NCBI GenBank assembly: GCA_963718105.1
Contig: OY970352.1
Span: 2,546,237-2,610,236 of the forward strand
DNA length: 64,000 nucleotides
Direction: 5' to 3'
From: an uncultured Acidobacteriota bacterium
GTDB lineage: Bacteria > Acidobacteriota > Blastocatellia > Pyrinomonadales > Pyrinomonadaceae
The notes below the pieces were generated by a model. It did no database searches. It was not told the DNA's origin and was given only the letters and a program-made list of their open reading frames with translations. This document shows positions 46,880 to 59,425 of the stretch, one piece after another. The first letter of the stretch is position 1, and every line of letters begins with the position of its first letter. A program made the position numbers and the translations under genes.

Positions 46880-48022
46880 TCATAAAACATTCCAACAGAT
46901 CTCAAAGGGGAAAAACCCTGAGGATAAAGCAATAGGAGATCGCAGGTATTTGGCTCCGCCTTTCAATACTGTTTTAACTTCATATTCAAGCTCCAGCGTA
47001 CGCTTCATTTCAACGGAAAGTTTAAAGGGAGCGGAACCAATTTCCGCTCCGATTCCCACACTGATATATCCGGTAGAACCTAACTTGGCGCCTTCCGTAT
47101 CACTGTCGGAATCATTGGCCGGCACCTTGGTTTTGTCAAAGGTCCCCCAAAATTGCGGCCTGGGCTTAGGATTTGCGGGCAATACATCAAGACAACTGTC
47201 TATCCCCGCAGGAATAGGGCGGGTTATGCGAGCGTCAGGATCGGCTTCCACCACGCGGTATCGCGTTCCGGATGCGACCGGCTTGCCATCCACCAGGGTC
47301 GTGCCGTGTTCAACTACCAGTTTCGCCGGAATTGCTTCCTCTTTGCATATCGAACCGGCCTGAATTTTGGTCGACATTTGAGTAGTAAAACCCAATCCGC
47401 CCCCGCCTTTTAAACCGGCAAATTCATACTGAGTGTCGGTCTCGACTTTCTCAGTGGTGGTGATCGTGGCCTCGGCGGTGCAACCGGCAAGATGAGGCCG
47501 ATGAATGCGAAAAAGTGGAAGATAGATTGGTATTACCCAATCAGGAGTGTTTGGGTCTCGTTTGAATTCAACCTCTACCGTACTTAAAAAATAAAATCCT
47601 TTATATAACTTTGAATTGGCCACATAAAAAGGACGCGAAGAGCCTGAACCCTGTTCGTTACTAAACCCATAATACTTATCAGGGTATTGGCTCAAAAACA
47701 ATCCCTGATCGGCAATTTCTCCTCCTACTCCCAAAAGAACTTGTCCAAGACCTTTTGTCTGTTTTTTTTCGATTCGGCCTATATAGCGAGCTCCCCAATC
47801 AGAATTAAGGGTTAACTCCGCTTCCTGCCCCGTAATCTGAATTTGGCTCAGTGAACCTACCGCGGCCTTTGCGTATTTTTTCGTAAGATGCGAATTTTCG
47901 ATCTTAGTTATTTCAACTTTTATCCCGTCTCGAGTTTTTGGAATTTTGCTTTCGTCATCTTGTCTTACAAGCGTTAAGATCGTTTGCTTATCGCGACAAG
48001 GAATTTCCCACATCTCGGTCAT
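46880..48022 (-). CDS. Hypothetical beta-rich 380-aa protein without signal peptide; candidate aerolysin/ETX-MTX2-like pore-forming fold
   Basis: GGAG RBS and AT-rich codon usage. The central segment ATITTTEKVETDTQYEFAGLKGGGGLGFTTQMSTKIQAGS is an alternating Ser/Thr-rich two-strand stretch around a Gly turn. No family recognised with certainty. Confidence 0.7.
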   Translation of the reverse strand: MTEMWEIPCRDKQTILTLVRQDDESKIPKTRDGIKVEITKIENSHLTKKYAKAAVGSLSQIQITGQEAELTLNSDWGARYIGRIEKKQTKGLGQVLLGVGGEIADQGLFLSQYPDKYYGFSNEQGSGSSRPFYVANSKLYKGFYFLSTVEVEFKRDPNTPDWVIPIYLPLFRIHRPHLAGCTAEATITTTEKVETDTQYEFAGLKGGGGLGFTTQMSTKIQAGSICKEEAIPAKLVVEHGTTLVDGKPVASGTRYRVVEADPDARITRPIPAGIDSCLDVLPANPKPRPQFWGTFDKTKVPANDSDSDTEGAKLGSTGYISVGIGAEIGSAPFKLSVEMKRTLELEYEVKTVLKGGAKYLRSPIALSSGFFPFEICWNVL

Positions 48023-48284: not shown

Positions 48285-48836
48285 TTATTTCGTTGTCGTC
48301 TCTTTCGGATTATGATCGCGGTAATCCAGGAAGTCGTACCCGACATTGGCGGCGAGGAGCATCCACATTATGATCGTCCCCAGCGGGGTAATATATTCGA
48401 TGTCGTGAATTCCCTTGTCGCGCCCCATATAAAAGCTGATCGCGCCGAACACCAGGTAGAACAGGATCACAAAACAGACGGATATAAGCGTCGGCAAAAC
48501 GATCTCTTTTCCACCGACATTGTTATAGGTAAAGGAAAAAAATCCGGCCGTAACTCCCGCCGCCAGGATTGATAAAATTCCGATGGCCGAAGAATATGCC
48601 GGTGGCGTTTTACCGGCGGCTGTCACATTTGGCGTCTCAGAGATCAGCAGGAAGAAACCCAGCGCGGCCAGCAGCGTGCCGAACATCCCAAACGCTGCGC
48701 ACAAATAATACTTCCATTTGGATGATTTGTTCTCAAAATCTATTTTTCTCCCGTCTTCTCTAAAGAAGATAGCCCGCGCCACAATAGCGGCTACCCCGAA
48801 AAAACATCCTACTAATACAAGAGCAAAACCACCCAT
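48285..48836 (-). CDS. Hypothetical 5-TM membrane protein (183 aa)
   Basis: GGAGGTG RBS. Five hydrophobic segments (FALVLVGCFFGVAAIV, YYLCAAFGMFGTLLAALGFFLLI, AIGILSILAAGVTAGFFSF, LPTLISVCFVILFYLVFGAISFY, LGTIIMWMLLAANVGY). No family recognised. Confidence 0.7.
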   Translation of the reverse strand: MGGFALVLVGCFFGVAAIVARAIFFREDGRKIDFENKSSKWKYYLCAAFGMFGTLLAALGFFLLISETPNVTAAGKTPPAYSSAIGILSILAAGVTAGFFSFTYNNVGGKEIVLPTLISVCFVILFYLVFGAISFYMGRDKGIHDIEYITPLGTIIMWMLLAANVGYDFLDYRDHNPKETTTK

Positions 48837-51109: not shown

Positions 51110-52576
51110 ATGCCAACTAAAGTAACTAAAAAGAAAGGCAGCGCAGGCACTGATGAAAAAAAGAACGGTGCTGCTGCCGATGAAGTAAAAGAAAAAATAG
51201 AAGACACTCCGCTTGAAGAGGTCGAAGAGATCGAGGAAATTGAGGAGGTCGAGGAGATCGATGCCGGCGAAGAAGAAGCAGAAGAAGAAACGGTAAGATC
51301 TTCTCCGCCCTCGGGCAACGGTGCCAATTTCGATCTCGCGGTCCTCAAGGAAATGTCTATTTCCGACCTCACGCACGTCGCCAAGGATTACAACATCCTG
51401 GGCGCTTCGGGCATGAGAAAGCAGGAGTTGATCTTTAAGGTCCTCGCCGCGCAAACGGAAAAAAGCGGCTTGATCTTTTCCGAAGGTGTGCTGGAAACCT
51501 TGCCCGACGGCTTTGGATTTCTGCGCGCGCCGGAATCTAACTATCTGCCGGGCCCGGACGATATCTATGTCAGCCCTTCGCAGATCCGCAAGTTTGACCT
51601 GCGCACCGGCGACACCATAAGCGGCCAGATCCGCCCGCCCAAGGAAGGCGAGCGTTACTTTGCGCTGATCAAGGTCGAGGCGATCAACTTTGAATCTCCG
51701 GAATCTTCGCGTGAAAAAGTATTTTTCGACAACCTGACGCCGCTTTATCCCGACGAACGCCTGACGATGGAGATCGGCCCGGATAATATCTCGGCCCGTG
51801 TGATCGACCTGGTCACGCCGATCGGCAAAGGCCAGCGCGCCTTGATCGTGGCGCCGCCGCGCACCGGTAAAACGATGCTGCTGCAGACCATCGCCAATTC
51901 CGTCACGACCAATCACCCGGAAGTAACCCTGATCGTGCTGCTCATCGACGAGCGCCCGGAAGAAGTTACCGATATGCAGCGCAGCGTCAACGGCGAAGTT
52001 ATCAGCTCGACCTTTGACGAACCGCCGACCCGCCACGTGCAGGTTGCGGACATGGTCATCGAAAAAGCAAAACGCCTGGTCGAACACAAACGCGACGTGG
52101 TTATCCTGCTCGATTCGATCACCCGCCTGGCGCGCGCGCATAACGCGGTCGTGCCTCCGTCGGGTAAGATCCTTTCCGGCGGTATCGATTCAAACGCGCT
52201 CCAGCGCCCGAAACGCTTTTTCGGCGCCGCGCGCAACATCGAAGAAGGCGGTTCGCTGACGATCATCGCCACCGCGCTGATCGACACCGGTTCGCGCATG
52301 GACGATGTTATTTTCGAAGAGTTCAAGGGAACGGGTAACTCGGAAATTCATCTTGACCGCAGGCTGAGCGACAAACGCCTCTTCCCGGCGATCGACATCC
52401 AGCGCTCCGGCACCCGTAAGGAAGAACTGCTGATCGAGAAGGAAGACCTAAACCGCATCTGGGTAATGCGCCGCGTCCTCAATCCCCTCTCGCCCGTCGA
52501 GCAAATGGAAGTCGTGCTGGAAAGACTCTCGAAGTCAAAAGCCAATGCGGATTTCCTGGCCAGTATGCAGACCTAA
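51110..52576 (+). CDS. rho: Transcription termination factor Rho with Lys/Glu-rich N-terminal extension
   Basis: Walker A APPRTGKT plus the RNA-binding and ATPase core ([24 protein letters not shown]). About 75 extra N-terminal residues include [25 protein letters not shown]. Confidence 0.95.
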
Positions 52577-52638: not shown

Positions 52639-52669
52639 TAAAGGGCAGGTTTTGTACCTGCCCTTTTTA
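52639..52669 (+). terminator. Rho-independent terminator after rho
   Basis: AAAGGGCAGG-TTTTGTA-CCTGCCCTTT followed by TTAT. Confidence 0.75.
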
Positions 52670-52855
52670 TGTCTCGCTCAGCGAAGTCAGGCATGTGATT
52701 AGCATAAACGAGGGCGCAATGTTCAAGCGGTGCCAGGTTGTAGGGGTTTTTAAAGTGCTTCCCGTCTCTTTCCGTAATGGGCAAATAATTTCTTTCCAAA
52801 TAATCCGTTTTCGATTATTCTTTTGCTGCAAAAGTTTTCAACCTGATCAAACTTC

Positions 52856-54964
52856 ATGAAAAAGAGCACTTCCCGCAAACTTCTTCTTATTTCGTTGGCA
52901 ATAGTTTTTCTTTCATTGCTATCGGGACTACTGATCAACCTGATGACAAACAGCCCGGATTTTACGCGATGGTTAACGGATAAAGGAATTGGAACAAGGC
53001 ATATGGTGGGCGGCGTGATTATCACGGGCGCCGGCCTGTTGTTTCTTGCATATCTTCAATTTCGATATGACGAGGCCCCGGTGTCTTCCGGAGAGAAAGG
53101 CGTTTCCGGCCCCGACGCCGATCCCGATGTCGAGATGTTCTTCGATTCGCTGAGTAAGCGCTACCGAAATCGTTATGAGCAAAAACTGGATGGACGTTTC
53201 GCGATCACCCTGGAAATTCGCGAAAATTGGGATGATGAAGACGCAGAACCGGTTACGGATAAGTTTGAAAAAGATCCGAATTCCGGCCCGGCGGCGCTCA
53301 AGATCAATGAGCTGTTTCTAAAGAAGAAGCGATTGCTGATCGTCGGAAATCCCGGGGCCGGAAAAACCGTCCTGCTCTTAAAGCTTGCATTGAATCTTCT
53401 TGAAAACACCGAAAGGAGAGGAAATTATCAGATCCCGGTAATATTCAATCTTGTTTCATGGTCGCCTAAATATAGGAAGTTTGAAGACTGGCTGGTTGCA
53501 ATGCTTGTTTACGGCGAGGGACTATCGCGCGACCTTGCGGAAAAAATGTTGCACAAGAATAGGATCGTATTTTTGTTTGACGGTTTGGATGAATTAGCAC
53601 GAAATGAAAAAAAGAAAATTGCGGCCAAGAAGCGGGCTGATTGCCTGGAGGCGTTGACCTTGTACTTCCGGAAAGGGCGCCAAAACGTAATTTGCTGTCG
53701 TAAGAAAGAATTCGTTCGAATCCGTGCCGCTACCGGACAAGACGCGCCTGTTTCGGCAAAGATAGATATAAAAGATTTGACACAAGACCAGATTGAGGGC
53801 GCTTTATTAGAGGCTTCATACAGCGTACGCGAAGGGAGAAACGTAGATGAGGTTTCCGCGGTAAATATATTGACACTATTGCAGGAAGACAAAGGCAAAG
53901 CCCTTTCGGAGGTTTTGCAAACGCCTTTCTATTTCACCACCGCGCTCGAGGTTTTCGATCAGCAAAATGTTAAATTCCCGGACCTGCCGAAAAATATAAA
54001 GAGTTTGCAGAAGTACTTACTGGATAAATTCGTAAAGAATAAACTTGAACATACGCCAAATCCGAACGAGTTCGAATTCGGAAAAACGTGGACGATGCTG
54101 GTATCGCTTGCCACGCTGATGGAGAAAAAACAGCTTATTACCTTCGAGCTTGCCGATCTGCAGCCGTCGGATCTGACGAAGAGATGGACTTATACCGCCT
54201 TTTTCGGTTTAGCGGTGACGTTGTTATTCAGCCTGGTTTTTATTTTATATGTCGGCCTGGTGCATGGTTTGTCCGATGAGGTAAGCTATCCCGAATTTTT
54301 CGGAGGCTTGATATTCAGTTCCTTTTTCGGCTTCTTTCTCGGGATGAGTATAGGCTCCGAGGATGAGATCACCACTGAGGATATAGTGCGCCTCAGCTTT
54401 TCCAGATTCCTTAGTTGGGAGAGGGTAGCGATAAAATCTCTCTTATTCGGCCTGGGCGTTGGGGGCATCACCAGCCTGTTTCTTATCGCCACCACCGGCG
54501 TGGTTTTTGGCGTTATTTTCGGTTTGCTGAGCAGTATCGCCTGGGGCTTCGGAAATCTGAAAAGGATAACAAGATTTGCCTATCTCAAAAGTCCGTACCA
54601 GAGGATATACGGCGGTTTTACCGTAAACCTGGCATTTGTAATATTGGTAAGTATTCTAATAATGTGGCTTACGTATTTCTTCGAGACTGCCAACAGCAAA
54701 TGGCTTATTGCCGTTTCAATCTTAACGCTATACCTGTCATTTATACCGCTGCTTCGGCATCCGCTGATCCGGCACTTCATTCTTCGTTTCGCGCTGCGGT
54801 TCGAGGGGGTTGTTATTCCAAAATACGTAACGTTTTTGAACTATATTGATGCGACCCGGATACTGGAGCGAGACGGGGGACATTGGCGATTTCGGCACCA
54901 AAATCTGCAGGAATATTTTGCTGAATTAAGTAAGGGGCCGACTATGCGGAAGCCCGCATTATAA
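52856..54964 (+). CDS. Membrane-embedded NACHT-family STAND NTPase
   Basis: Two N-terminal TM segments. Walker A LLIVGNPGAGKTVLL and Walker B IVFLFDGLDEL. About six TM segments in residues ~470-650. Terminal FRHQNLQEYFAEL is typical of the NACHT winged-helix end. AT-rich. Confidence 0.8.
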   Translation: MKKSTSRKLLLISLAIVFLSLLSGLLINLMTNSPDFTRWLTDKGIGTRHMVGGVIITGAGLLFLAYLQFRYDEAPVSSGEKGVSGPDADPDVEMFFDSLSKRYRNRYEQKLDGRFAITLEIRENWDDEDAEPVTDKFEKDPNSGPAALKINELFLKKKRLLIVGNPGAGKTVLLLKLALNLLENTERRGNYQIPVIFNLVSWSPKYRKFEDWLVAMLVYGEGLSRDLAEKMLHKNRIVFLFDGLDELARNEKKKIAAKKRADCLEALTLYFRKGRQNVICCRKKEFVRIRAATGQDAPVSAKIDIKDLTQDQIEGALLEASYSVREGRNVDEVSAVNILTLLQEDKGKALSEVLQTPFYFTTALEVFDQQNVKFPDLPKNIKSLQKYLLDKFVKNKLEHTPNPNEFEFGKTWTMLVSLATLMEKKQLITFELADLQPSDLTKRWTYTAFFGLAVTLLFSLVFILYVGLVHGLSDEVSYPEFFGGLIFSSFFGFFLGMSIGSEDEITTEDIVRLSFSRFLSWERVAIKSLLFGLGVGGITSLFLIATTGVVFGVIFGLLSSIAWGFGNLKRITRFAYLKSPYQRIYGGFTVNLAFVILVSILIMWLTYFFETANSKWLIAVSILTLYLSFIPLLRHPLIRHFILRFALRFEGVVIPKYVTFLNYIDATRILERDGGHWRFRHQNLQEYFAELSKGPTMRKPAL

Positions 54965-55183: not shown

Positions 55184-55897
55184 TCACCTGCTTTTGTTCC
55201 AGCGGTGCCCTCCGAACATCCGCACGGCGCGATAGGCGACGTCGCGTTTCCACTTTGCTATCTGCCTTTTTTCCATCAGCTCGTAAAAAAGATTGTCGGC
55301 ATCTTTGCGAAGGAACGTGTGTTTCGGATCTTCCAGAGGTTCCAATTGGCCAGGCGGCAGATCACCGCCGCAGCGATACAGCAGATCGTGAAACAAAGGG
55401 GCTTCGATAGACAGTTCAAATGAGGAAACCATCGGCCAAAGAAAGCGCGGGACGCTGGCCAGGTCAGTGAAAGAATCTTTTTTTGCGGTCAGGGCCCACT
55501 TCCCAAACCGGTAGGAACAATCTTCCACCACCATCCATTCCCTTTTGGAAACGACATAAGTTATCTTGGCGGTCGGGACATCGTCTCCTGCCGCTCCGGT
55601 TTGAGAAACCAATCCGGCGGCGTTTACTATCTCGACGATCTCTTCATCGGAAATATCCTCAAGCTTGCTCACGTCCAGATCAAGAACATTTTTGGGAGCG
55701 TCAGATTCCGGCAGCAAAGCCTCTTCCTCACCGAGTTCTCCGGGCATTGGCGCGCCCGCATTCGTCTTAAATGCCGCGGGAAGATCTTCGCCCCGGTACA
55801 TATTGATATGAACGTCCTCACCGGAAAGCTGACCGGAAAGAATTTTTTCATCTATTTCCGCGACGCTTGACCTCAACTGCTCTGCCACCGATTTCAT
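55184..55897 (-). CDS. DUF1353-like protein with acidic N-terminal region
   Basis: 237 aa. FTDLASVPRFLWPM...APLFHDLLYR matches the DUF1353 pattern (D.AS.PR..W ... HD.LY) as I recall it. The N-terminal ~100 aa are Glu/Asp-rich. Confidence 0.6.
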   Translation of the reverse strand: MKSVAEQLRSSVAEIDEKILSGQLSGEDVHINMYRGEDLPAAFKTNAGAPMPGELGEEEALLPESDAPKNVLDLDVSKLEDISDEEIVEIVNAAGLVSQTGAAGDDVPTAKITYVVSKREWMVVEDCSYRFGKWALTAKKDSFTDLASVPRFLWPMVSSFELSIEAPLFHDLLYRCGGDLPPGQLEPLEDPKHTFLRKDADNLFYELMEKRQIAKWKRDVAYRAVRMFGGHRWNKSR

Positions 55898-55969: not shown

Positions 55970-56020
55970 GAAGTTTCCCTTGCGGGTCGTGTCCAAAGGT
56001 GTGGCGCGGCATCAAATAAT

Positions 56021-56107
56021 CATTCGGAATGGATGACAGATAATAGTTGATAGCTGAGAGATTTGATCTCTTATCTGTCATCTATCAGTTATCATCTACT
56101 CCGAATG
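56021..56107. repeat. MITE-like repeat, family D copy 3 (most complete)
   Basis: Terminal inverted repeats CATTCGGAATGGATGA... and ...TCATCTACTCCGAATG around GATAGCTGAGAGATTTGATCTCTTATCTGTCATCTATCAG. Confidence 0.8.
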
Positions 56108-56231
56108 GTAATCCTACAAACGAACTCTACGCGGGGAAATTATCGCGGCGCGCGGTATAAATTAAGCCGTTCAAATAGACGGCATAGCAGAACGCAGTTA
56201 AAATAAACCTTGCTCCAATTATCTCTTTAAC

Positions 56232-57653: not shown

Positions 57654-57658
57654 AATTG

Positions 57659-59425
57659 ATGCCGGAATTCAAGATCAACGACAACCTGGAATTGAGAACT
57701 CTGCAGGAAGAGGACGTGCTTGTCCTGGCCTCGCTGGTAAAGGAAAACCTGCCGCACCTGCAGCCGTGGATGCTCTGGGCGGTGGATGATTATGACGTCC
57801 GGCACGCCGGTGATTTCATCCGGCAAAATCTCGACAATACCTCAAAATACCAGGCGCCCAGCTACGGGATCTTTTATGAGGGAGAACTTGTCGGCTGTAT
57901 CGGCTTTGTAAAACTGGACCGCGAAAGCGGGCTGGCGGAGATCGGGTATTGGATCAGCGCCGAACACCAGGGCAAAGGTTTGATAACCCAGTGTTCCCGC
58001 GCGCTGATCGAATATTGCTTTGAAGAACTGGGTATGGCCCGCGTCGAGATACGCGCCGCTGCTTCGAATGAGCGAAGCCGCGCTATTCCGGAAAAGTTCG
58101 GTTTCAAGCTTACCGGCCAGTTCAAGGACGAACATCCGCTTCCCGATCGGGTAGATGACCTGGTGATTTACGAAATATCCGCCCGCGACTGGCGATCCCT
58201 CTCCGACAAAAAGTTCCACGTAAAATTTAAGGAAATGCTGATCCGTCTTTTCCGGCGCGAGACGACTTCCAAGGAATTCATCCCGGTCATTGACGGCCTC
58301 CGCTTTCTGGCCATCACAATGGTGCTGCTCTTTCATCTCGACGGCTACATTAAAGAAAAATCCGCGGCACTTTCTTTTGCGCCCGCGAGTGAAACACTGG
58401 CCAAAGTTCCGGATATTTTTATTTTTGGCTTTCAGGGTGTCCAGCTTTTTTTCGTGATCAGCGGATTTATCCTGGCGGTGCCTTTTATGCGGTATGCACT
58501 GGGCCTGACCGATAAAAAGCCCCGCTTGCGGGCGTATTACCTGCGCCGCCTGACGCGGCTCGAACCGCCGTATGTCATTTCGACCATAGTCATCTTTCTC
58601 CTGCTGGTATTTGTTATCGGCAGTAAATATCCCATGGGCACTTTGACGGTATCGCTTTTTTCTTCGCTGTTTTATGCACATTTTCTGGTTTTTCCCGGCG
58701 AGCCGCCCTATATAAATCAGATCACCTGGTCGCTGGAAATGGAAGTGCAATTTTACCTGCTGGCGCCATTTCTGGTGGGCGGGTTGTGCCTTTTAAAAAA
58801 TAAATCCTCCCGGCGGATAGTGAACTTGTTATTGATCTTGTCGTTTGCCGGTTTGAGCTGGCTGCAGGAACTTTACTGGCACGTCGGGATAATGAATATC
58901 TCGATGTACCTGCATTATTTTTTGGCCGGCATTTTACTCTGCGATGTCTTCCTGCTCGACAGCGACAAACTGGGCCGGTTGAGCAGTGTCTGGGTGTTTA
59001 TTTTAGGGCTGCTTTTATTAGTGCCGATTACTTGCGTCAATCACTCGTACGCGCAAAACATCGCGCTCAGGATGGCGTCGCCGATAATGATCCTGGCGTT
59101 TTACCTGATCGTTTTCGGCAACAAGTGGTGGAACAAAATATTCAGCCTCAACGGGCTGACACTTATCGGCGGGATGTGTTATTCGATATACCTGCTTCAT
59201 TACGTGACGATCTCGGCGGTCGGGCGCTTTACCGCGAACCGGTTATATTTCAGCAATTTCACCGCTTACTACTGGGTGCAGATCTTTGTTTTGCTGGCGG
59301 TCGTGATGTTTCTCTCAGCGGTCTACTTCCTGCTGATCGAAAAACCCTGTATGAAACGCGATTGGCACATTCGATTATATGAGCGGTTCAAGACTCTCAG
59401 TTCATTTGGCAAGCCATTGAATTAA
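57659..59425 (+). CDS. Fusion protein: GNAT (RimJ/RimL-like) N-acetyltransferase plus acyltransferase-3 (OafA/YrhL-type) membrane O-acyltransferase
   Basis: The N-terminal ~185 aa are GNAT-like (IGYWISAEHQGKGLITQ, RVEIRAAASNERSRAIPEKFGF). The rest has IDGLRFLAITMVLLFH and about 10 TM segments, typical of acyltransferase_3. Confidence 0.75.
   Translation: MPEFKINDNLELRTLQEEDVLVLASLVKENLPHLQPWMLWAVDDYDVRHAGDFIRQNLDNTSKYQAPSYGIFYEGELVGCIGFVKLDRESGLAEIGYWISAEHQGKGLITQCSRALIEYCFEELGMARVEIRAAASNERSRAIPEKFGFKLTGQFKDEHPLPDRVDDLVIYEISARDWRSLSDKKFHVKFKEMLIRLFRRETTSKEFIPVIDGLRFLAITMVLLFHLDGYIKEKSAALSFAPASETLAKVPDIFIFGFQGVQLFFVISGFILAVPFMRYALGLTDKKPRLRAYYLRRLTRLEPPYVISTIVIFLLLVFVIGSKYPMGTLTVSLFSSLFYAHFLVFPGEPPYINQITWSLEMEVQFYLLAPFLVGGLCLLKNKSSRRIVNLLLILSFAGLSWLQELYWHVGIMNISMYLHYFLAGILLCDVFLLDSDKLGRLSSVWVFILGLLLLVPITCVNHSYAQNIALRMASPIMILAFYLIVFGNKWWNKIFSLNGLTLIGGMCYSIYLLHYVTISAVGRFTANRLYFSNFTAYYWVQIFVLLAVVMFLSAVYFLLIEKPCMKRDWHIRLYERFKTLSSFGKPLN

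Follow-up and report, generated by a model that had tools for sequence, protein, structure and literature searches.

A membrane-integral NLR-like NACHT NTPase from an Acidobacteriota bacterium with a predicted transmembrane insert in its winged-helix domain

Bacterial NACHT proteins were surveyed in 2022/2023 by Kibby et al. (bioRxiv 10.1101/2022.07.19.500537). Soluble bNACHT proteins defend against phage. Table S1 and category 4 of the Supplementary Discussion of the survey describe a '68TM-wHTH' module in clade-5 NACHT proteins, in which an N-terminal domain that varies precedes the NACHT domain and six to eight transmembrane (TM) helices joined to a winged helix follow it. The four clade-5 examples are actinobacterial and carry an N-terminal REase, an adenylyl cyclase, an HTH or no annotated domain; the NACHT+68TM-wHTH combination is predicted there to sense intramembrane or periplasmic signals, and the clade-5 rows examined in Table S1 bear no bNACHT test label (Kibby et al., bioRxiv 10.1101/2022.07.19.500537). 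The protein described here likewise has TM helices (residues 443-633) C-terminal to its NTPase and associated with its winged helix, and is by architecture a member of this catalogued, uncharacterised 'NACHT + 6/8TM-wHTH' kind, although it differs from the clade-5 examples in being closest to Acidobacteriota (Pyrinomonadaceae) and in carrying an N-terminal TM hairpin. The original prediction that the architecture had not been described was thus wrong: the design, though rare, is already listed in the work of the Aravind and Whiteley groups.

With bNACHT01, bNACHT25 and the Avs proteins, the window protein (the window being the whole stretch of 64,000 nucleotides that was analysed) shares an N-terminal effector slot, a STAND switch with Walker A/B motifs and a winged-helix-domain (WHD) histidine, and a sensor to follow; like it, each of these systems consists of one gene, and effectors (TIR, REase and others) can be exchanged. 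They are, however, cytosolic and have soluble repeat or short C-terminal sensors, whereas the window protein is membrane-integral and its only candidate sensor is the TM array inside the WHD. Tmn and PifA are membrane-integrated P-loop NTPases that act as single-protein defences. Tmn resembles the window protein in being one large membrane-integrated P-loop NTPase for both sensing and output, and its defence at the membrane depends on Walker A. It is not a STAND, however: two TM helices interrupt its P-loop domain, it assembles into a decamer, it recognises RIIB through cytosolic arms, and its output is Mg2+ export. In the window protein, by contrast, no TM helix breaks up the P-loop domain, the insert being in the winged helix instead, and Pfam and PADLOC profile searches detected no sequence relationship to Tmn. 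KAP NTPases (Kidins220/ARMS, PifA) are P-loop relatives of the STANDs that likewise combine their NTPase module with TM helices; according to a summary in the Tmn literature, T7 is excluded by PifA via membrane depolarisation and leakage. The number and position of TM helices in KAP NTPases differ from those of the window protein. In the plant CC-NLR resistosome ZAR1, NTP-dependent oligomerisation gathers N-terminal helices into a membrane channel. The likeness here would be one of possible working and not of membership. ZAR1 is soluble until activated, inserts its N-terminal helix only and has an NB-ARC and not a NACHT domain, whereas in the window protein a hairpin and six further helices are predicted to reside permanently in the membrane.

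The gene, which the ORF listing, Pfam, homologues, AlphaFold2 (AF2) and Foldseek together define as encoding a 702-aa membrane-integral NACHT (NLR-like STAND) NTPase, occupies positions 52856..54964 (+) of the window, with the ATG start of the ORF listing. Another gene caller starts the same gene later (P0001, 649 aa); conservation of the first TM helix among the aligned sequences supports the ATG at 52856. In the window, the gene is flanked by rho, engB and glgA. The terminator scan and reading of the sequence revealed an intrinsic terminator of rho at 52640..52666 (+), with an 11-bp stem and then a T-run, and the NACHT gene is therefore a separate transcription unit; Rfam and tRNA scans around it found nothing relevant. 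The AT-richness reported for the gene relative to rho and glgA is real (GC 0.464 and GC3 0.533, against 0.560 and 0.687 for rho and 0.568 and 0.709 for glgA), but it is weak evidence of foreign origin because the nearby housekeeping gene engB is equally low in GC (0.445). A 15-nt direct repeat flanking the gene was dismissed as not significant, since by estimate ~0.2 such pairs are expected by chance in 3 kb.

Assignment to the NACHT/STAND NTPases was borne out by the HMM search that had been proposed, in which Pfam NACHT PF05729 matched residues 160-273 with 41.2 bits, above the gathering cut-off of 26.7, and by the motifs. Both nucleotide-binding motifs named in the original prediction were read in the translation: the Walker A motif GNPGAGKT (residues 164-171; 53345..53368 (+)) follows the pattern GxxxxGK[ST], and the Walker B motif IVFLFDGLDEL (residues 237-247) includes, within IVFLFDGLDE (residues 237-246; 53564..53593 (+)), the NACHT clade signature D[GAS]hDE as DGLDE at 242-246. 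This signature is used as defined by Kibby et al. (bioRxiv 10.1101/2022.07.19.500537). Both motifs contain invariant columns; in an alignment of 65 sequences, G164, G167, G169, K170, T171, D242, G243, D245, E246, R282 (the sensor-1 Arg), P357, G674, R678, F679 and H681 are invariant. The AF2 strand/helix order and the Pfam match delimit a pre-NACHT helix, a beta-hairpin and the P-loop nucleotide-binding domain (NBD) at residues 90-305 (53123..53770 (+)), a region whose conservation is second only to that of the C-terminal winged-helix half, and neither hydropathy nor AF2 shows a TM or hydrophobic segment inside the P-loop domain (residues 141-305). Helical domain 1 (HD1; residues 306-380; 53771..53995 (+)) follows, with AF2 helices at 310-366 and conserved columns that include a TPFYF motif with the invariant P357. 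The NACHT NTPase is predicted to be catalytically intact and cytoplasmic.

Other identities were rejected for the window protein. PADLOC gave weak matches to the P-loop region alone, the best being PDC-S60 (1.2e-7) and mad8 (3.2e-6), and no Avs or NLR model matched, which speaks against the Avs families. KAP_NTPase (PF07693) gave no match at E<=0.01, and both DGLDE, the signature of NACHT proteins, and the histidine motif of the WHD assign the protein to NACHT and not to KAP. The YobI/Tmn family does not fit a P-loop domain (141-305) uninterrupted by TM helices. ABC_tran, the profile for an ABC/ECF transporter ATPase, did not match the window protein, and the JGI names attached to homologues (EcfA2, DnaC, SAR1, MFS) look like erroneous annotations prompted by the P-loop or by composition; the transporter reading and these names were rejected because no corresponding profile matches were found.

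The first half of the winged helix (residues 381-442; 53996..54181 (+)), recognised from AF2 and conserved columns, comprises helices 381-399 and 408-425 and a strand near residue 430, and ends in a conserved F-E-L-x-D-L-Q-P; W414, A419, F430, E431, L432 and Q436 are near-invariant. An amphipathic helix and the second half of the winged helix are found at 54755..54934 (+), the most conserved region of the protein (conservation 0.74), as delimited by AF2, conservation and a weak match of Pfam PF24406 nSTAND_NTPase4, a STAND C-terminal model, to residues 656-689. The amphipathic helix (636-649, with H640, L643 and R644 conserved) comes directly after the TM bundle, followed in the AF2 model by helix 657-666, beta-hairpin 670-679 and helix 682-693. 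The end motif noted behind the TM bundle was read in translation and alignment as the winged-helix histidine motif WRFRHQNLQEYFA (residues 677-689; 54884..54922 (+)), in which R678, F679 and H681 are invariant. In NLRs, the winged-helix histidine is known to contact the nucleotide (His443 in NLRC4).

The AF2 monomer model, which is of high confidence (pLDDT 85.4, pTM 0.81), shows an NBD-HD1-winged-helix fold with the conserved WHD histidine, and the best solved structures retrieved with it by Foldseek were NOD2 (5irm), NLRC4 (4kxf) and NLRP3 (E 2.5e-8 to 1e-6). A profile of the 65 sequences searched against PDB sequences gave P-loop-level matches alone and no NLR, so the NLR kinship is visible by fold alone. 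The model runs from helices 381-425 through six TM helices to the helix/beta-hairpin/His681 element at 657-693, whose counterpart in NLRs closes the nucleotide pocket. The suggestion that the TM bundle sits inside the STAND module was right to this extent, and AF2 places the six TM helices as an insertion between the two halves of the winged-helix domain.

TM helices were called from Kyte-Doolittle hydropathy and AF2 helices, which agree on eight: 3-30, 47-72, 443-472, 478-499, 515-543, 548-568, 588-608 and 614-633. The first two, already anticipated, form an N-terminal hairpin (residues 3-72; 52862..53071 (+)) with hydropathy peaks at 9-27 and 51-69 and a pLDDT of ~70 in AF2. The other six agree with the predicted number but span ~443-633 and not ~470-650. 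This insert (residues 443-633; 54182..54754 (+)), as seen from hydropathy, AF2, hhalign and conserved columns, consists of three hairpins, the first two of which are duplicated units (hhalign unit A against unit B, probability 85.9, E 5e-6). The number of hairpin units in homologues varies from 2 to about 5, plus the terminal unit, while the control for the unit search returned 1 match among 1004 control proteins. Two short strands (510-513 and 569-572) are also present in the AF2 model of the insert. Lys/Arg counts fit the positive-inside rule and place the NACHT module in the cytoplasm, leaving outer loops of 0-5 residues. Even at E values up to 10, no meaningful Pfam family was found for the N-terminal hairpin or for the TM insert, and the 702-aa protein does lack a soluble repeat sensor, as had been claimed. 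Conservation is lowest in the TM helices, as would be expected of a fast-evolving sensor and equally of an anchor under loose constraint.

In total, 137 homologues were found, most of them full length, and the TM-NACHT layout recurs in most of them, so it does not stem from chance in a single sequence. The 2TM + NACHT + six-TM layout is the commonest one in this small family, and nearly all of the more distant loci inspected also have TM helices after the NACHT; the actinobacterial relative Hamadaea L056 has the same 2TM + NACHT + TM layout. The family is patchily spread over Acidobacteriota, Bacteroidota, Cyanobacteria, Chloroflexota and Actinobacteria, with one archaeon and copies on cyanobacterial plasmids. 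The N-terminal hairpin is present in 113 of the 171 full-length family members. In others the TM-wHTH is kept and the hairpin is exchanged for a TIR domain (P0052, P0056, P0148, P0149) or for EAD11 (P0103, P0111, P0136, P0184, P0206), and the hairpin thus appears, from these sequences, to occupy the slot where relatives carry effector or adaptor domains. No EAD11-bearing partner is encoded adjacent to the EAD11 versions. C-terminal additions are seen as well, with a TIR domain alongside the hairpin in P0182 and an S26 peptidase among other relatives. Fusion to TIR or EAD11 is a hallmark of conflict systems, and a conflict or defence role is plausible because relatives carry these domains in place of the hairpin. 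The REase, adenylyl cyclase or HTH at the N-terminus of the clade-5 examples, the patchy spread with plasmid copies, the solitary position in varied contexts and the separate transcription unit also speak for such a character. We consider, with the chances evenly balanced, that the gene encodes an NLR-like STAND switch of the NACHT clade that works alone, is integral to the membrane and acts as a conflict protein; an anti-phage function is plausible.

What the TM array does within such a protein can be read in several ways. Judging from its duplicated units, variable copy number and conserved small-xxx-small and loop motifs, it is probably more than an anchor. It may be an intramembrane pattern-recognition sensor that detects invader membrane proteins or membrane damage and gates the NLR nucleotide switch, with the hairpins forming a resistosome-like pore, a proposal that we put forward tentatively and on the doubtful side. 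Holins, injection or superinfection-exclusion proteins and conjugation machinery can be named as invader targets of such a sensor. The TM array, varying in copy number and sequence, would then be the counterpart of LRR, TPR and WD40 arrays.

Alternatively, the TM insert and the hairpin of an NLR-like conflict protein may merely hold it at the membrane, with sensing on cytosolic surfaces, that is on conserved loops, on the NACHT itself or through a host 'guardee' (compare the bNACHT01/25 types with their short C-termini), and with oligomer-driven membrane perturbation or a partner encoded elsewhere as the output. We regard this as rather unlikely. It would explain why the strongest conservation of the insert lies in its cytoplasmic loops (I505-x-T-E-D509, P580-Y-Q-R583) and in H640/R644, not in the helices, and why some relatives keep the hairpin and add WD40, ankyrin or TPR sensors behind an unchanged TM-wHTH (P0213, P0122, P0146); the outer loops are, moreover, too short for ligand binding, and Tmn senses its trigger with cytosolic arms. 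Nevertheless, about 94% of family members have no additional sensor domain, and a plain anchor needs neither a variable-copy repeat array with conserved glycine-zipper-like motifs nor an insertion inside the switch domain instead of at a terminus. The relatives with added WD40/ankyrin/TPR or TIR domains show that sensing may lie outside the TM array and the effector function outside the hairpin.

The small-xxx-small (glycine-zipper-like) motifs, which are conserved in TM4 and TM6, also bear on whether the array is the output, namely an NTPase-driven gated channel or exporter comparable to Tmn with its Mg2+ export, the trigger being sensed elsewhere. Such motifs are common in channel-forming helices, the array is kept even where TIR or EAD11 replaces the hairpin, and Tmn shows that a defence protein can couple an NTPase to ion export. 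However, few conserved polar residues are present in the TM helices of the insert to line a pore, STAND NTPases are switches and not motors, and a second effector would be redundant because array-bearing relatives already carry bona fide effectors (TIR, REase). An output role of the array seems very unlikely to us.

Genomic context bears on whether the protein serves immunity at all. Clustering of the flanking ORFs across 86 loci revealed no conserved partner gene beyond generic response regulators and ABC ATPases; the gene is solitary in varied contexts, for example between pntA and pntB, and even the closest homologues (65% and 47% identity) sit in different ones. The defence-island enrichment for which the neighbourhoods were to be inspected is not evident, as no neighbour is conserved at these loci and only a handful of 150 flanking proteins, about 8-12 as raw counts, match PADLOC at 1e-8, some of them housekeeping proteins such as QueC; a search of the phage collection found no homologues. 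The protein might be a membrane-state or envelope-stress signalling NTPase, for instance one that controls how a membrane complex is assembled in multicellular or filamentous bacteria. The mostly housekeeping flanks (rho, engB and glgA here; pntAB, ilvD and a phosphorylase elsewhere), the lack of a defence-island signal in them and of phage-borne copies in the phage collection, and the low GC shared with engB would agree with this. A housekeeping role, however, usually shows conserved synteny or a partner gene, whereas the contexts are variable and not consistently transporter or housekeeping operons, and the patchy distribution, the plasmid copies and the TIR and EAD11 fusions likewise count against such a role, which we consider unlikely. 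What is new is that this layout is the commonest in a patchy family, that the TM insert is a variable-copy hairpin array, that relatives swap or add domains, and that no neighbour is conserved and no defence-island enrichment is evident.

For a membrane-integral conflict protein, the following course of events can be envisaged. At rest, the winged-helix histidine half would hold ADP and keep the protein as an inactive monomer in the inner membrane. The trigger may be a rearrangement of the TM helices by a membrane protein of a phage or other invader, by a membrane lesion or by a change in membrane state. In all studied STANDs known to us, activation shifts the position of the winged helix against that of the nucleotide-binding domain. 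Because it is spliced into the winged helix, the TM array would pass any rearrangement of its helices straight on to the nucleotide switch. Nucleotide exchange would then lead to oligomerisation in the membrane plane, and the oligomers would cluster the N-terminal hairpins, or the TIR/EAD11 domains in relatives. The clustered hairpins would most likely perturb membrane integrity or ion balance, and infection or the cell would be aborted.

The kind of protein is already catalogued, and the remaining gain lies in its function and mechanism. Being small, single-gene and modular, the family is tractable for domain-swap and structural work. To the best of our knowledge, all mechanistically understood NLR-type switches, bacterial and eukaryotic, read soluble ligands with soluble repeat domains. 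In the window protein, the TM helices in the switch domain are the only candidate sensor; if they do sense, this family would show an NLR that monitors the membrane itself, and such an NLR would join the few membrane-integrated defences, Tmn, PifA, Kiwa and Zorya.

The NACHT gene at 52856-54964 (+) is an ATG-initiated ORF of 702 residues. P0001 (649 aa), the product of a gene caller elsewhere, corresponds to a start at residue 54 of this ORF, and the longer window ORF is the better call because the first helix is conserved among homologues. A Pfam search gave NACHT (PF05729) at residues 160-273 with 41.2 bits against a curated cut-off of 26.7, so that the NACHT reading of the original prediction was right, and Walker A (GNPGAGKT, 164-171), Walker B (IVFLFDGLDEL, 237-247) and the histidine motif WRFRHQNLQEYFA (677-689) all lie where it had placed them. 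Residues 656-689 also weakly match PF24406, a short STAND C-terminal model in Pfam. In a 65-sequence alignment, the invariant columns coincide exactly with the STAND catalytic and switch residues: G164, G167, G169, K170 and T171 of the P-loop; D242, G243, D245 and E246, which form D[GAS]hDE, defined as the NACHT-specific Walker B signature (Kibby et al., 2023); sensor-1 R282; P357 of helical domain 1; and G674, R678, F679 and H681 at the extreme C-terminal end. On the strength of these residues, the protein is predicted to be an active nucleotide switch. Foldseek comparison of an AlphaFold2 model against the PDB returned NOD2 (5irm, E 2.5e-8), NLRC4 (4kxf) and many NLRP3 NACHT structures, with Cdc6/Orc and CED-4 lower in the list, and the fold assignment is therefore consistent with the sequence assignment. 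No solved NLR was reached with the sequence profile alone.

Kyte-Doolittle analysis revealed two hydrophobic helices ahead of the NTPase and, from residue ~443 on, a cluster of further hydrophobic segments. In the AlphaFold2 model, which is based on the 65-sequence alignment and is confident (mean pLDDT 85.4, pTM 0.81), the former are the transmembrane (TM) helices 3-30 and 47-72, confirming the two that had been announced before the NACHT domain, and the latter comprises 443-472, 478-499, 515-543, 548-568, 588-608 and 614-633, eight in total. The internal bundle of six helices thus exists as described, but it starts about 25 residues earlier than had been stated. By Lys/Arg counts per segment across the alignment, which obey the positive-inside rule, the cytoplasmic parts are the N-terminus, the NACHT module, the loops spanning 500-514 and 569-587, and the last 70 residues; on the outer side, the insert has three loops of just 0-5 residues each. 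As modelled, the nucleotide-binding domain (116-305) and helical domain 1 (310-366) are followed by a pair of helices plus a short strand (381-430), with a conserved FELxDLQP at the end, and the six TM helices are followed by an amphipathic helix (636-649), a helix (657-666), a beta-hairpin (670-679) and a His-containing helix (682-693). By the model, the elements in 657-693 are the recognition helix, wing and histidine motif of an NLR winged-helix domain. Since the TM block precedes them, the secondary-structure order of the model, together with conservation, places it within the winged-helix domain instead of appended after the STAND module, which agrees with the first of the two placements originally offered for the bundle, inside the module or at its C-terminal side. 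NLRC4 His443, the equivalent of the winged-helix histidine of the window protein, contacts ADP.

The insert is composed of three TM hairpins, units A, B and C. Profile-profile comparison related unit A (440-514) to unit B (512-586; probability 85.9, E 5e-6), and found unit C, the last hairpin, distinct from both. Unit HMMs detected additional A/B-type units in longer homologues, five ahead of the terminal C unit in P0009 (949 aa) and three in several homologues of 770-830 residues; in a control they matched just 1 of 1004 unrelated flanking ORFs, and the unit signal is therefore not simple hydrophobic bias. The C-terminal TM-wHTH (winged-helix) module is covered by no Pfam model. Outside the NACHT gene, a 147-aa ORF at one homologue locus (L059, 5630-6073 (-)) gave two unit B profile matches (E 9e-5 and 0.014), and may represent either a hairpin-repeat protein in its own right or what is left of a decayed paralogue. 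The TM helices show the lowest conservation in the protein (0.33-0.41, compared with 0.65 for the nucleotide-binding domain and 0.74 for the second winged-helix half), and a small-xxx-small periodicity is conserved in the second helix of unit A (TM4) and of unit B (TM6). Within the insert, conservation peaks at the cytoplasmic loop motifs I505-x-T-E-D509 and P580-Y-Q-R583 and at H640, L643 and R644 of the amphipathic helix; in the model, the two loops build a small sheet from strands 510-513 and 569-572.

A search of 5.8 billion proteins yielded 137 relatives, most of them 680-730 residues long with full-length coverage and the same layout. With residues 380-702 as query against 1.84 billion cluster representatives, 582 matched at E<=1e-3, 148 at <=1e-10 and 26 at <=1e-30, the match being the C-terminal end of a ~700-residue protein in nearly all; the TM-wHTH module is real but rare. 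Automatic JGI names of family members contradict one another (EcfA2, DnaC, GTPase SAR1, MFS permease, DNA polymerase III delta prime) and look like P-loop-level or composition-level mis-annotations. Genome matches are patchy, covering Acidobacteriota (closest Pyrinomonadaceae at 39% identity), Bacteroidota (Saprospiraceae), many filamentous Cyanobacteria, Chloroflexota, Chlorobi, Actinobacteria and a single archaeal genome, Methanocrinis. Tolypothrix and Nostoc plasmids bear full-length copies, and no family member was found in the phage collection searched. Judged by this one mobile-looking gene, whose closest homologues are acidobacterial, the window may come from an acidobacterium.

The N-terminal two-TM hairpin is present in 113 of 171 full-length members, and the window protein therefore has the commonest architecture; in 27 a soluble domain takes its place. 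Pfam identified TIR (P0052, P0056, P0148, P0149) and EAD11 (P0103, P0111, P0136, P0184, P0206) at this end, in versions that lack the hairpin and keep the TM-inserted winged helix: the N-terminal slot alternates between TM hairpin, TIR and EAD11. About 6% of the full-length members carry an extra domain after the histidine motif, namely WD40 (P0213), ankyrin (P0122), TPR (P0146, P0207) or TIR (P0182), or, in P0217 and P0218, one further TM helix and then a signal-peptidase-like Peptidase_S26 domain, a layout by which an NLR-like protein would bear a peptidase domain on the non-cytoplasmic side. P0181 (1338 aa) carries two complete 2TM/NACHT/TM-wHTH modules in tandem on a single polypeptide, with Walker A motifs at 163 and 803 and Walker B motifs at 244 and 884. 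We propose that the TM array relays an event at the membrane to the winged helix, which would then let go of the nucleotide, and that nucleotide exchange would in turn lead to oligomerisation in the membrane plane and to clustering of the N-terminal modules, in the window protein with membrane perturbation as the result; to the chain as a whole we give an even chance. The main rival keeps the conflict role and reduces the TM parts to anchors, which is supported both by the conserved loop motifs being cytoplasmic and by the WD40, ankyrin or TPR sensors added by some relatives, and which we regard as unlikely.

In the window, the gene order is rho, the NACHT gene, a convergent DUF1353 gene and glgA. 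A strong terminator 3' of rho (52640-52666) marks the NACHT gene as its own transcription unit. Its AT-richness relative to rho and glgA was borne out (GC 0.464 and GC3 0.533, against 0.560 and 0.687 for rho and 0.568 and 0.709 for glgA); however, the housekeeping gene engB, two genes upstream, is equally low (GC 0.445), and composition alone is therefore little informative on the origin of the gene. A near-identical 15-nt direct repeat flanks it (TGTTCAAGCGGTGCC, 52720-52734; TGTTCCAGCGGTGCC, 55195-55209), which is weak evidence for an insertion scar because, by a rough estimate, ~0.2 such chance pairs are expected in 3 kb. The rho product (51110-52576 (+)) has an acidic low-complexity insertion in its N-terminal part. 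The DUF1353 protein (55184-55897 (-), 237 aa; PF07087, E 1.8e-19) has a long acidic N-terminal half; its gene and the NACHT gene together part rho from glgA, and other loci gave no sign of a functional link between the two. Between the divergent DUF1353 and glgA genes lies an imperfect palindrome of ~92 nt (56019-56109; folding energy -41.3 kcal/mol, z = -6.1 versus shuffles), single-copy within the window, for which Rfam gave nothing but a weak match, on both strands, to a miRNA hairpin model; it may represent a hairpin with a regulatory role or the remnant of a REP/MITE-like element. Starting 3 nt past the glgA stop, a 589-aa protein (57656-59425 (+)) fuses a GNAT acetyltransferase (residues 11-151) to a membrane Acyl_transf_3 domain (212-555). 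In a stretch of low GC (0.40-0.49), Pfam, NCBIfam and PADLOC matched neither a 380-aa protein (46880-48022 (-)) nor a 183-aa multi-TM protein (48285-48836 (-)).

At the loci inspected, homologues occur in unrelated surroundings. P0065 sits precisely between pntA and pntB, both transhydrogenase genes, on a contig of 1.8 Mb (L083, 10001-12079), looking like a lone gene that landed inside an operon; others adjoin ilvD (L086) or lie near a phosphorylase and a SLATT/DUF4231 gene (L081) or a photolyase (L088), and P0002, 65% identical to the window protein, is in a different context. Clustering of all flanking ORFs of 86 loci yielded no conserved neighbour, and by raw count only a handful of the 150 nearest neighbours matched PADLOC at 1e-8: one type I methyltransferase, one reverse transcriptase, AbiEi, Cas1, PbeA, DarG and two QueC, the last two probably housekeeping. 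Defence-island enrichment, the check proposed in the original prediction, is not evident from these raw counts, and the neighbourhood pattern is not evidence of defence-island residence; it is typical of a mobile gene that stands by itself. Ordinary metabolic families are the most frequent Pfam assignments of these neighbours. A non-immune role in membrane signalling would fit such housekeeping surroundings, and we consider it distinctly improbable.

Although the architecture had been taken as undescribed, it is already catalogued. Kibby et al. (bioRxiv 10.1101/2022.07.19.500537; Cell, 2023) sort bacterial NACHT C-terminal regions into categories, and in their Table S1 a module '68TM-wHTH' is annotated in four actinobacterial proteins of clade 5, where the N-terminal partner is an HTH, a restriction-endonuclease domain or an adenylyl cyclase, or is missing; no experimental-test flag appears in the clade-5 rows considered. 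We found no later paper characterising a TM-inserted NACHT. The window protein joins this catalogued kind from a phylum other than that of the actinobacterial examples. By way of working, its nearest characterised analogues are two membrane-integrated P-loop NTPases, Tmn (YobI family), which has two TM helices inside its P-loop domain, senses phage RIIB and exports Mg2+, and PifA (KAP family), which depolarises the membrane upon T7 infection; the window protein lacks the defining features of either family. A Tmn-like model, with the TM bundle itself as the output, is very unlikely in our view.

The original finding is real and was accurately described in its NACHT and insertion reading. To it are added the finding that the TM array is built of repeats whose copy number varies, a survey of domain swaps throughout the family, and the absence of a partner gene among the flanking ORFs of 86 loci. 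By sequence and model, the window protein combines an intact cytoplasmic NACHT switch, permanent membrane integration and a TM array of repeats spliced into the domain that bears the nucleotide-sensing histidine.
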